Assembly: GCA_026014875.1 (NCBI GenBank)
Contig: JAOZHO010000050.1
Coordinates: 36,090-100,089 of the forward strand
Origin: Candidatus Bathyarchaeota archaeon
GTDB lineage: Archaea > Thermoproteota > Bathyarchaeia > TCS64
Direction: 5' to 3'
DNA length: 64,000 bases
Below, piece after piece: positions 57,375 to 61,871 of this stretch. A model generated the notes under the pieces. The model saw only the letters and a program-made list of their open reading frames with translations, was not told where the DNA came from and ran no database searches. How positions within the stretch are numbered: position 1 is the stretch's first letter; each line of letters starts with the position of its first letter. A program made the translations under genes and the position numbers.

Positions 57375-58690
57375 TCATATAAAAGGTTGGTGGGAGGGGT
57401 AGTCTCTCAAACTCTCCGGTGGGAGACATATCTGCATCTCGGTATCCCGTCTGCCGGGCATAATCAGGAACGCTGTGAGGGACCCCAGGAAGCAGACGAA
57501 GCGCTGGAACGGCGTCAACGGAACGACCTTGAAGATCGGGTTGAGCGCTGTTATGTACAGAATCGCCAACGGCATTGCTACGGAGAGCATGATCGAGATG
57601 AAGCGCATCTTGTTCTCGGCCCATCCCTTCCATCCAAGGCTGAAGATGTGGTGTGTCTCGGACAGGCACTGGTAGGAGAGGAAGAACTCAAAGAAGACGA
57701 TGCTGGTGAACGCGAAAGTCCTGGCGGTCGTGGCTGCTAACTCGTAATCGCCAGTCGCCATCCACGTCGTGCTGAACATCTATATATTAACGGAATGAAG
57801 CCCACGAGCGCCGCGAAGATGATGAATCACCAGAACCTCGTGAGCAGCCCCTCCTTCGGGCCCCGAGCGGATACTTCATCAGGGGGGTCCTGAGAATCGA
57901 TGCTCAACGCAACGGCGGGTAGACCATCGGTGACTAGGTTGACCCAGAGGATGTGAATCGGTAAGAACTGCCGAGGCAGGCCCAGGAGGGTCACAATTGT
58001 GATCTCGATGAACTCGTCGAAGCTAGTCGCAAGCATCAATCGGAGGTACTTGTTGACGTTGTCGTAGATGTGGCACCCTCCTTGGATGGCCCTCACGATG
58101 GTGGCGAAGTTGTCATCCTCGAGGATCATGTCAAATGCCTCTCTGGTGATCTCGGTCCCTTTGATTCCCATTGCGATTTCGATATCCACCGCCTTCAATG
58201 CAGGAGCGTCGTTGACGCCGTCTCTTGTCATGGCCCCAATATGACCGTTCCTCTTCAGGGACAATGCTATACGCATCTTGTGCTCGGAGGAGATCCTGAC
58301 GAAGACTCTGACATCGTCGATCTCCTCCACCTTCTCTTCCGACATCACGGAGCCGGGGACCTTCTCTTTCAGCACCCAAATCTCTATAGCGATGGCGACG
58401 GCAGTCAGCCTGTGGTCCCCCGTCACCATCACTGTTTTTCTCCCTGTATGCTGGGTGACTTTGATGGCCTCGGGAACCTCCGCCCTCGCGGGATCGATCA
58501 TCCCGGTGAGGTCGACAAAGGCAAGACCACTCAATCTTCTCCATCCCATCCTCTTCAGCTACAGGGACCTCCTTATAGGACACGGCTAGCACCCTCAAAG
58601 CGTTGCTCGCCTATCCCTGCAAGGTGAACAGAACCTGTTCCCGGTTCTGCTCGTTGAGGGTCGAAAGATGTCCTCTGTCAGGCATGGGGA
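57375..58690 (-). pseudogene. Degraded P-type (Ca2+/PacL-like, type IIA) ATPase, C-terminal half
   Basis: Fragments ALRVLAVSYK, MIDP, MVTGDH, TRDGVNDAPALK (mutated TGDGVND), WVNLVTDGLPA in several frames, with an in-frame stop and frameshifts. Confidence 0.88.
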
Positions 58691-59461: not shown

Positions 59462-60700
59462 CTAGCCCTTCAGCGTGCCGACGCCTATCAGCCGCCACCT
59501 GCTCCCGATCCTCCGGCTTAGGGCCACCCGATCCCCGGCCTCCCCGCAGACGGGGATGGTCAGCGTGGCCTCGAGGTAGTCTTTGGCTACCTTGGTGACG
59601 GCCCCCATGGTCTTGGCGGTCCCCACGTTGAGGAGGAGCCGCTCTCCCTTGGCGACCGAGGCCACCTTCCCCATATCTCGGCTCCCTATGACGTTCTCGA
59701 ATAGCCGTATGTCGAGACTGATCTCCCCGAGGACGGGGGGAAGTGTTCCTGGCTTGCCTATGAGGCTGCCTACGAGGCCGTCGGACTTTGTGAGGGATGG
59801 GTCGAGGAGGGTGCCTACTCCTACGAGTCCCCCCGGCATGGCCTGCTTCACCGTGGTGTTCCCGGAGTGGAGGCTCGTGATCTCGGTGAAGAGCCCCTTC
59901 ATCTTGACTTTGTTCTTCTCCCGGACGGGGAGGCCCGGCCTGATCTCGACCTCCTCCCCCGCCTCGAAGCTCCCTTGGATTATGGAGCCTCCCACGACGC
60001 CTCCCTTCAGATTATCGATGGAAGTGCCGGGGACGTTGACGTCAAAGCTCCTCACGATGTACATCCTGGAGGACTCCGTAGTCGCCCTCTCTGGGGTCTT
60101 GAGATACTCCTCCATAGCCTGGAGAAGGAGGTCCGTATTGACCTCGTGCTGGGCTGAGACTGGGATTATCGGGGCGTCCTCTGCCACTGAGCCCTCCACG
60201 AACTTTTGGATATCATTATAGTGGCGGATCGCGTCCTCCCGGGTCACGATGTCAATCTTGTTCTGGACGATGAGAACATTCTCGAGGCCAACGATATCGA
60301 TGGCCGCGAGGTGCTCTCGGGTCTGAGGCTGGGGGCAGCGCTCATCGGCGGCGATTACCAGGATGGCGCCGTCCATGACGGCTGCGCCGCTGAGCATCGT
60401 TGCCATGAGAATCTCGTGGCCCGGGGCGTCCACGAAACTGACGGCCCTCTGGAACTCCGCCTCGGTTCCGCATTGAGGGCATGATGTGGACGTGCAGTAG
60501 CATTGGGGCTCGTCGCAGTTGGGGCACTTGTAGATAGCGGCGTCAGCATACCCCAGCTTGATAGTGATCCCCCTCTTCAGCTCCTCGCTGTGGCGGGAGG
60601 CCCATACGCCGGTGAGCGCCTGGACCAAGGTTGTCTTCCCGTGGTCGACGTGACCTATGGTGCCGATGTTGATCTCGGGTTGGCTCGGAAATTTAGGAAT
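59462..60700 (-). CDS. eif2g: Translation initiation factor aIF2 gamma subunit; probable ATT start
   Basis: QPEINIGTIGHVDHGKTTLVQALTG, EELKRGITIKLGY, zinc knuckle, DAPGHE, QTREH, NKID; in-frame TAA at 60718-60716. Confidence 0.95.
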   Translation of the reverse strand: MPKFPSQPEINIGTIGHVDHGKTTLVQALTGVWASRHSEELKRGITIKLGYADAAIYKCPNCDEPQCYCTSTSCPQCGTEAEFQRAVSFVDAPGHEILMATMLSGAAVMDGAILVIAADERCPQPQTREHLAAIDIVGLENVLIVQNKIDIVTREDAIRHYNDIQKFVEGSVAEDAPIIPVSAQHEVNTDLLLQAMEEYLKTPERATTESSRMYIVRSFDVNVPGTSIDNLKGGVVGGSIIQGSFEAGEEVEIRPGLPVREKNKVKMKGLFTEITSLHSGNTTVKQAMPGGLVGVGTLLDPSLTKSDGLVGSLIGKPGTLPPVLGEISLDIRLFENVIGSRDMGKVASVAKGERLLLNVGTAKTMGAVTKVAKDYLEATLTIPVCGEAGDRVALSRRIGSRWRLIGVGTLKG

Positions 60701-60746
60701 CTTGATTCTCCCCTTTTAACGGTCACAGTAGTTGGGGGGGTTGGTC

Positions 60747-61655
60747 CTATAAACGTTTATGAATTGATGCATGAGGTTGCTTGGAGGCTCCCGAGGCCCT
60801 AGATCTCCCAATTCCTTCGCCCTGAATCGCTCTATCCGGCTCGAAGAGGATCATCGAAAGCAAAGCGAGGAGCTCCTCCTCCCCTGAGAAGATCGAGTCC
60901 TCGAAGAGGATAGCCCCCTCCCGGGAGGCGATCCGGGCCAGCAGGAACCGCTCATCGTCCGAGTTGATGAAAATGACGGGGGCTGTGAAGTCCACCTTGT
61001 TGATCTGGACCACGTAGGAGAGTTCCCTCGCGAGGGAGCTGGTCTTCGGGTCCAGAGGGGAGTGAAGGATGACTCGTATCCCCCGGTTGTTATTCTCATC
61101 GAGGAGTCGGTGAGCGGAGTTGAAGAGGAGGCCCAGCCCGTCCTCGTTCGTCAGTATTGTGAGGCTCCTCTGAGATTTCCCGATCATCTCGAGACACTTC
61201 CGCATCGTCTCTCCCTCCTCCTCGATATACCACACGATCTTCTTCCTCGGGCGGGCATCGTCCCGCTTTTTCTCATGGGTCCTCGTCAAAGCTTGGAGGA
61301 CCGCGTCGAAGTCTAGGGCCCTTCTCCTGAAATCGTCTAGGAGGGCCTCGAAGGCCTCGGCCGGATTGGAGGGCATGAAGACCTTGGGGGATCCCGGGAT
61401 CTCCACGACGAGGCCGTTGTCGATCAGCTTCCTCAGGGTCCCATAAACCTTCGTCCTGGGGACCCTGCAGTGGAGGCTCAGCCTCCTCGCTCCCGACGAG
61501 CCCAGGATGAGGAGACTCAGATACACCTTTGACTCGTACTCCGAGAGGCCCGTGTAGTCAACGATCTTGGGCCATGTTGCGAGGAGGTTATCGATGTCTC
61601 GGGTGCGGGCTCTTCTCGTGGGTTTATGCTCCTTGACGAAGGCGTATCTACTCAT
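60747..61655 (-). CDS. TrmB-family transcriptional regulator
   Basis: GLSEYESKVYLSLL...VPRTKVYGTLRKL...GLV wHTH followed by an effector-binding domain. Confidence 0.88.
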   Translation of the reverse strand: MSRYAFVKEHKPTRRARTRDIDNLLATWPKIVDYTGLSEYESKVYLSLLILGSSGARRLSLHCRVPRTKVYGTLRKLIDNGLVVEIPGSPKVFMPSNPAEAFEALLDDFRRRALDFDAVLQALTRTHEKKRDDARPRKKIVWYIEEEGETMRKCLEMIGKSQRSLTILTNEDGLGLLFNSAHRLLDENNNRGIRVILHSPLDPKTSSLARELSYVVQINKVDFTAPVIFINSDDERFLLARIASREGAILFEDSIFSGEEELLALLSMILFEPDRAIQGEGIGRSRASGASKQPHASIHKRL

Positions 61656-61871
61656 AGAATCCCTTTACGTTGTTGAGATTCCGATCTAACTCCTTTTTTT
61701 AATGCTGTCACTATCGTGATCGAAGTATAGTTACAAATTTCAATAAATCTTAAGATTATGATGCACGCTTGAGAGGTGCCTTGGCCTTATTTTCAATTGT
61801 ATAATGTTTTTCCTTTAGGCTAAACAGTTTTATAACTACGCTCTTGTATGTTTTTGATTCAGGTGGATCAG

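Follow-up and report, generated by a model that had tools for sequence, protein, structure and literature searches.

At which codon does translation begin for the gamma subunit of archaeal initiation factor 2 (aIF2-gamma), the GTPase that brings initiator tRNA to the ribosome, when its gene has no conventional start codon in the expected place? The question is raised by a minus-strand aIF2-gamma gene in a 64,000-nucleotide stretch of a Candidatus Bathyarchaeota archaeon contig (JAOZHO010000050.1), referred to here as the window. We find that translation very probably begins at the near-cognate codon ATT 60700, and that ATT, ATC or ATA (collectively ATH, or AUH in mRNA, H being A, C or T/U) is held at this position across nearly all of an order-level clade of Bathyarchaeia.

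The open frame spans 417 codons from stop to stop (60715..59462, minus strand) and scores above the cut-off of both aIF2-gamma equivalog profiles (TIGR03680, 628.8 bits against 514.5; NF003077, 643.8 bits against 315). Its product aligns over the full length to solved aIF2-gamma structures (M. jannaschii 1s0u, residues 10-417, E = 1e-160), the P. abyssi and S. solfataricus chains align to it as well, and the Cys-rich knuckle CPNC...CPQC is present. The gene is essential and single-copy: in G000, the 2.5-Mb metagenome-assembled genome (MAG) that contains the window, the second match (29% identity) is an EF1-alpha-type GTPase. The features that bear on its start are the following.

59462..60700, minus strand: aIF2-gamma coding sequence (CDS), 412 codons plus a TAG stop (59464-59462)
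60716..60718, minus strand: in-frame TAA, which closes the frame 5 codons before the start codon
60698..60700, minus strand: start codon ATT (AUU), near-cognate, mismatching the CAU anticodon at the third codon position
60632..60655, minus strand: P-loop GHVDHGKT (GTP-binding motif), lost if the start is the first canonical codon
60626..60628, minus strand: TTG, the first in-frame canonical codon, which ab initio gene callers choose although it is not the true start

After the TAA, the minus strand reads AAG GGG AGA ATC AAG ATT CCT AAA TTT CCG AGC CAA and continues CCC GAG ATC AAC ATC GGC ACC ATA into the P-loop codons GGT CAC GTC GAC CAC GGG AAG ACA, which are directly followed by ACC and then TTG (60628-60626). 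This direct read bears out the initial annotation on each of its local observations: there is no in-frame ATG, GTG, TTG or CTG between the TAA (60718-60716) and the P-loop, TTG 60628 is the first canonical codon and lies past the P-loop, and GGGGAG precedes ATT 60700 by 7 nt. By chance, 29 successive codons would lack a canonical start about 20% of the time, which is not rare. The telling points are instead the stop-bounded, conserved N-terminus and the recurrence of the arrangement in 114/121 related sequences.

Alignment to characterised proteins places the start at the same codon. Open-frame residue 11 corresponds to residue 6 of the S. solfataricus protein (2pmd), residue 7 of P. abyssi, residue 4 of M. 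jannaschii and position 6 of NF003077, so that characterised aIF2-gammas start at open-frame residues 5-7. ATT 60700 is open-frame residue 6, and it aligns with position 1 of NF003077 and with Met1 of S. solfataricus aIF2-gamma. The proposal of the initial annotation that translation starts at ATT 60700 behind GGGGAG is upheld by the Met1 alignment and by coding conservation that starts at this codon, and the predicted product would begin (M)PKFPSQPEINIGTIGHVDHGK.

To follow the codon across relatives, 5' ends of aIF2-gamma genes were gathered from the genomes of 40 relatives, from 80 named species genomes and from 80 metagenome contigs. In a maximum-likelihood tree, 121 distinct sequences form one Bathyarchaeia clade, which received 99% support in an 88-sequence tree (Shimodaira-Hasegawa-like approximate likelihood ratio test, SH-aLRT). 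The codon at the start position is ATC in 62, ATA in 38 and ATT in 14 of these sequences, giving ATH in 114/121 (~94%), or in 57/62 genome sequences and 57/59 further metagenome sequences; 90/121 have no canonical codon at all from -21 to -12. Two of the seven remaining sequences have ATG, and the five others carry TTG or ATG one codon downstream or, in the two cases from genus g15 genomes, ACG instead. The same-genus genome G002 (90% amino acid identity) also has ATT.

Outside the clade, the gene starts conventionally. The sister lineage (L026) uses ATG, and all 25 outgroups, drawn from other Bathyarchaeia orders, Baldrarchaeia, Thermoplasmatota, an Odinarchaeota MAG and Ignicoccus, have ATG, TTG or GTG at most three codons away from the homologous position. 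The start is likewise canonical in ~55 more genomes from some 30 Thermoproteota families; starts that appeared to be missing in other Thermoproteota families (L211, L218, L228 and L230) were dismissed on finding TTG at the second open codon. The tree thus indicates one gain of ATH, at the root of an order-level clade (families f1, f2 and f4, not f3), and its maintenance ever since. Single origin and retention rule out a sequencing error, and a misread ATG, which the initial annotation had considered, is excluded by the recurrence of ATH in independent assemblies, G002 among them. The initial annotation had also held that its reading would fall if orthologues mostly used ATG, GTG or TTG at this position; in this order it is ATT, ATC and ATA that dominate. 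Both the ATT start and the depth of its conservation are firmly established, and the weak start codon is a stable and probably functional feature of aIF2-gamma in this clade.

Local departures from the pattern were observed in two places. In genus g15 (family f4), an additional ATG stands in frame within the conserved PE-M-NIG strand of L013, L015, L019 and L022, and in L015 and L022 the ATC is lost (now GCC or GAC) and the next codon is ACG; judged from these sequences, ACG or the internal ATG may have taken over as the start in this genus. A subclade comprising L016, L309, L312, L315 and L316 gained an ATG two codons upstream of its ATA or ATG start, only 3 nt after a GGGGG motif, and this ATG is absent from the close relative L087.

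Conservation among 56 aligned relatives changes in kind at the start codon. From ATH onward, amino acids are conserved while every codon varies freely among its synonyms: Pro at +7 is invariant (100%) and written with four codons, Glu at +8 is 100% conserved with two codons, and Leu at +3 is 95% conserved with several codons. The two codons that precede ATH, by contrast, encode 13-14 different residues, relatives differ by insertions and deletions in this region, and reading frames are not kept there. An in-frame stop lies at most 7 codons upstream of ATH in 26/56 leaders, and in four of those it is separated from ATH by a single codon. Between the start codon and the TATA box, the sole conserved stretch is one of nucleotides, GGGG[A/C]GA at -13..-7. 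ATG stands at exactly the same codon in L016, L316 and the sister-lineage sequence L026, and the natural ATG variants L016 and L316 retain the same Shine-Dalgarno (SD) site. The leader itself contains three features.

60746..60760, minus strand: ATAAACG plus TTTATAGG, a stretch resembling the transcription factor B recognition element (BRE) followed by a TATA box (60753-60746); putative promoter
60701..60723, minus strand: predicted 5' untranslated leader of ~23 nt, placed from the position of the TATA box
60708..60713, minus strand: Shine-Dalgarno site GGGGAG, with a 7-nt spacer AATCAAG before ATT

The TATA box (tatataag or tatttaag in relatives) is found at -53..-46 from the start codon in 62/62 aligned clade leaders, and its match to the archaeal TATA consensus and its spacing suggest that it serves as the promoter. 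In archaea, the centre of the TATA box lies ~26-27 nt upstream of the site where transcription begins, which would put the start of this transcript at ~60723 +/- 3. A TATA box at -53..-46 thus predicts a transcript that begins ~23 nt before ATT, too far for a leaderless mRNA and in keeping with an SD-led leader. The TAG stop (60749-60747) of the upstream gene, which encodes a TrmB-like regulator (60747..61664), falls inside the TATA box TTTATAGG.

The SD site is conserved at -13..-7 as G(.96) G(.80) G(.91) G(.96) A/C G(.75) A(.93) in the 56 leaders. As no 16S gene was found in the MAG of the window, the 16S 3' end was taken from the genus-mate G002 (...GGAUCACCUCCU), and it is complementary to the G-rich motif. 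The calculated energy of the duplex is -7.6 kcal/mol in the window leader, the clade mean being -10.4; in this purine-rich genome, such energies do not separate real starts from gene interiors, and the case for the SD site rests on its positional conservation. Predicted folds of the leader and the early coding sequence are weaker than those of shuffled controls (mean z +0.39), and alifold found no consensus RNA structure in either region across the clade. Weak folding without a consensus structure leaves the ribosome-binding site open and gives no sign of an RNA switch, and control by a riboswitch or hairpin was rejected for lack of a conserved RNA structure. What precedes ATT 60700 is therefore a purine-rich, 16S-complementary motif 5-10 nt before the start, as at SD-led archaeal initiation sites, within a leader whose extent is predicted from the TATA box.

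Public databases treat this start unevenly. Records of the NCBI Prokaryotic Genome Annotation Pipeline (PGAP) for several clade members place M on the ATH codon (P0061, a database protein corresponding to locus L045, on ATT; P0075, locus L017, on ATA; P0091, locus L023, on ATC), so the start coordinates are already implicit in public annotation. JGI, ENA and Logan data, by contrast, contain Prodigal-type calls that either shorten the protein to 388 or 395 aa, with the P-loop missing in whole or in part, or lengthen it to 444 aa through the promoter. Across public collections, the mis-called clade proteins are 381-395 aa long and begin inside or after the P-loop, or are 440-444 aa long and read through the promoter; P0002, P0038 and P0083 are among them. 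The database cluster of the window protein is represented by a 388-aa sequence whose first residues, LVQALTG, lie beyond the P-loop. No account of an AUH start of aIF2-gamma turned up in full-text literature searches.

What might a weak start on this gene do? We propose that the gene's own TATA promoter would yield an aIF2-gamma mRNA with a short (~23 nt), unstructured leader, on which GGGGAG would anchor the 30S subunit so that translation begins at AUU 60700. The AUU is most likely decoded by the ordinary initiator Met-tRNA (CAU), and reading AUH with a third-position mismatch would make for a weak start. Start-codon recognition, rather than ribosome recruitment, would then limit synthesis of the gamma subunit and throttle its output. 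The AUH codon, acquired once, has since drifted among AUU, AUC and AUA only. In S. solfataricus, 30S subunits with aIF1A, aIF2 and Met-tRNAi accept AUU only without aIF1 (PMC4705826; PMC6237735); aIF1, not aIF2, is the AUU-rejecting factor in this in vitro system, the sole archaeal one tested (PMC4705826; PMC6237735). By this analogy, gamma output would depend on aIF1 occupancy and on the supply of ternary complex, falling when aIF1-dependent stringency is high, and production of the gamma subunit would thereby be tied to the balance of initiation factors. For this stringency-coupled throttle as a whole, we consider the case evenly poised. A further step, in which the AUH start would be a selected sensor in a homeostatic initiation circuit, gated by stringency (aIF1 versus ternary complex), is argued from analogy and seems rather unlikely to us. 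We know of no AUU-discriminating role for aIF2-gamma dosage.

The other initiation components of the genome appear conventional. The aIF1, aIF2-beta and aIF2-alpha genes of G000 have canonical starts, as does aIF1 in 18 relatives, and the initiator tRNA is standard (A1, GGGG/CCCC anticodon stem, CAU anticodon). The aIF1 loop around the conserved Trp (ETRKWGK) shows no obvious difference between clade and outgroup, and no change in aIF1 or the initiator tRNA was found that would explain tolerance of near-cognate codons. The aIF1 genes of the clade (L112-L136; G000 C24:63481-63696) start with ATG (MAEICPVCGLP...) ~25-30 nt after an AAAG(C/T)TTTA box, and from this spacing their mRNAs are probably leaderless.

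A number of observations weigh against the throttle and are gathered here. The SD energy of the window leader, at the 32nd percentile of the genome, is ordinary, and the notion of an exceptionally strong SD site compensating for the weak codon was dropped on that account. The direction of feedback is also awkward, as more aIF2 should help, not hinder, initiation at AUU. Selection against ATG at the start, which would speak for the throttle, is suggested by the sequence changes at p ~0.07-0.14 only. On the tree, the third position of the start codon has changed at least 13 times, about as often as the synonymous sites nearby (15 changes at Leu (+3) and 19 at Pro (+4)). G occupies this position in 2/116 tips, against 30/107 (28%) at the fourfold-degenerate third position of that Pro, four codons downstream; changes between G and H number 2 at the start and 10 at Pro, whereas changes among H number 11 at both (Fisher p = 0.075). 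Set against a neutral 1:2 expectation, the 2 versus 11 changes give a binomial p of ~0.14, calculated from the change counts. The Leu site at +3 is equally poor in G, an effect of codon bias. What stands firm is that a stronger start, within reach of a single mutation in each lineage, was not favoured.

Near-cognate starts elsewhere in the genome weigh in the same direction. We screened for open reading frames (ORFs) in which 20 or more codons precede the first canonical one and a Pfam domain begins upstream of it, and at least seven other G000 genes need near-cognate starts by this screen. These are listed below.

Response regulator (Response_reg): ACG, 8 nt after GGAGGT
Ldh_2 enzyme: ATC, 8 nt after GGAGGT
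PIN protein: ATA, overlapping an upstream TAA
Nitroreductase
M19 dipeptidase
Epimerase: ATT
Ribosomal protein S24e (contig C46, L138): CTG, with no ATG, GTG or TTG before the Pfam domain

The six genes other than that for S24e lie at C39:851, C38:28584(-), C28:71797, C13:2352(-), C28:36978 and C46:88203. By rough extrapolation, ~0.5-2% of genes may use near-cognate starts. The S24e CTG is conserved in most family members (relatives L139-L161), the codon being ATG in L154, L158 and L160 and TTG in L146; it stands 9 nt behind a GGAGG motif, adjoining or overlapping the stop codon of the preceding gene (...WAEDFLSRMEEH*), and its sequence suggests a conserved, translationally coupled CUG start. 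The epimerase ATT belongs to this genome alone, with ATG at the exact position in 17 orthologues, and the Ldh_2 ATC is untraceable because none of its orthologues exceeds 43% identity. When 2067 ORFs of the genome were screened crudely, ATH codons that precede the first canonical codon showed no enrichment for SD motifs, from which it follows that ATH is not a routine start and serves a small minority of genes at most. The lineage may simply tolerate such codons; most of them are apparently short-lived, and the aIF2-gamma ATH is exceptional in the depth of its conservation. Two further genes, at C44:85635 (TrpB2-like) and C50:316039 (isopropylmalate/homocitrate synthase-like), have a conserved N-terminus without an in-frame canonical start, and in both an out-of-frame ATG and a short ORF lie just upstream; either a 1-nt assembly error or frameshift, or non-canonical starts, would account for them.

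The most serious rival to a stringency-coupled throttle is neutral tolerance. Under a relaxed start-codon check, ATG would have become ATH once, with a harmless loss of expression and no regulatory role. The near-cognate starts of the Response_reg, Ldh_2, PIN, S24e (conserved CTG), nitroreductase, epimerase and M19 genes are what such a lineage would be expected to show; three H codons against one G mean that neutrality alone predicts ~75% ATH, and the change counts given above do not significantly reject it (binomial p ~0.14; Fisher p = 0.075). However, if ATH were equal to ATG it should be common, yet it is rare genome-wide, and the epimerase ATT occurs in one genome while its orthologues keep ATG. 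ATG in 2/116 clade sequences is also few beside 28% G at the nearby fourfold site, and the ~80 sequences outside the clade are all canonical, indicating that this gene is normally under selection for a proper start. We regard tolerated drift as unlikely, though it has to be taken seriously. Direct negative autoregulation, as suggested in the initial annotation by analogy with IF3, would have high aIF2 raise stringency and so repress the AUU start of its own gamma subunit. The formal parallel is with the AUU start of infC, whose autocontrol is lost on changing AUU to AUG according to work cited in PMC4705826; eIF1 autoregulation through poor AUG context offers another parallel (PMC6237735; PMC4705826), and in aIF2-gamma a weak start on an initiation-factor gene is deeply conserved. 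Yet aIF2 delivers Met-tRNAi, and the published archaeal discriminator against AUU is aIF1 (PMC4705826; PMC6237735). By mass action, more ternary complex would give more AUU initiation, which is positive and not negative feedback; aIF1, the true IF3 analogue, starts with a normal ATG in this clade, and near-cognate starts in several other genes mean that the feature is not unique to aIF2-gamma. Such a loop, itself an argument by analogy, appears improbable.

Feedback could instead act at the 5' end of the mRNA, where free aIF2 or its gamma subunit would bind the 5'-triphosphate of its own transcript and block the SD site, the weak codon aiding the competition. The gamma subunit of S. solfataricus aIF2 binds mRNA 5'-triphosphate ends, according to PMC3936769, and the SD site begins ~10 nt from the 5' end of the predicted ~23-nt leader. 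Against this, the transcription start is a prediction, 5'-end binding by the aIF2 of Bathyarchaeia is analogy only, and in the clade leaders no structure or sequence other than the SD site is conserved at the predicted 5' end; we consider this mode of control very improbable. Finally, the ATT might be no start at all: it might be a true ATG misread in sequencing, the gene might be a pseudogene, or initiation might occur at the TTG downstream or at an upstream start reached through a frameshift. Ab initio callers do choose the TTG, giving 388-aa proteins, and a broken gene lies nearby in the MAG (the P-type ATPase remnant described below). But more than 110 independent assemblies share this ATH, the gene is single-copy and essential, and a TTG start would delete the P-loop. 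A frameshifted or leaderless start at the out-of-frame upstream GTG (~60726) was rejected because this GTG is not conserved in relatives and coding conservation begins at the ATH codon. An artefact or another start is effectively refuted.

If the weak start is functional, it would provide the first sign of archaea adjusting an initiation factor by the stringency of start-codon selection, an archaeal counterpart to infC in bacteria and eIF1 in eukaryotes. The proposed circuit is directly testable in the existing P. abyssi and S. solfataricus in vitro systems. Apart from any regulatory role, ab initio callers mis-annotate an essential marker gene across a large and abundant sediment clade, which affects marker-gene phylogenies and completeness estimates. 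Annotation of Bathyarchaeia must allow for near-cognate AUH, CUG and possibly ACG starts.

Two observations concern other loci. At 57375-58610 (minus strand) of the window, the C-terminal portion of a P-type ATPase is split among three reading frames (ALRVLAVSYKE..., ...DGVNDAPALK..., ...TARTFAFTSIVFFEFF...), and it is either a pseudogene remnant or the product of local assembly errors. On contig C13 of G000 (complement 103368-103456), ARAGORN reports an 89-nt 'tRNA-Pyl (CTA)' near the EF1-alpha gene, which may be a false positive in coding sequence.

Among known systems, the closest likeness is to infC, the IF3 gene, as each is an initiation-factor gene with a conserved AUU-class, third-position near-cognate start behind an SD site; in aIF2-gamma this holds for 114/121 clade sequences. 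With a start of this class on both genes, output must depend on how strongly the machinery rejects such codons. The two systems differ in that IF3 itself rejects AUU, giving direct negative autoregulation, whereas aIF2-gamma is a tRNA-delivering GTPase. As the archaeal discriminator in vitro is aIF1, any loop through aIF2-gamma would be cross-regulatory or opposite in sign. The proteins are moreover unrelated and belong to different domains of life, and aIF2-gamma uses all three AUH codons interchangeably. We know of no stringency circuit on the gamma subunit of aIF2. The eukaryotic factors eIF1 (poor AUG context) and eIF5 (upstream ORF) are closer in their machinery, which is homologous (eIF1/aIF1 and eIF2/aIF2), and their suboptimal start sites make synthesis of the factor report on initiation stringency (PMC6237735; PMC4705826). 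These genes, however, rely on an AUG in weak Kozak context or on upstream ORFs under scanning, whereas aIF2-gamma has a non-AUG codon placed by an SD site, and has it on the gamma subunit of aIF2. Sporadic near-cognate starts such as the AUU of E. coli pcnB share the same codon classes, stand behind an SD site and are likewise missed by ab initio gene finders. What sets aIF2-gamma apart from these is that its ATH is fixed across an order-level clade, while the epimerase ATT, the one other ATH start that could be traced in orthologues, occurs in this genome only.

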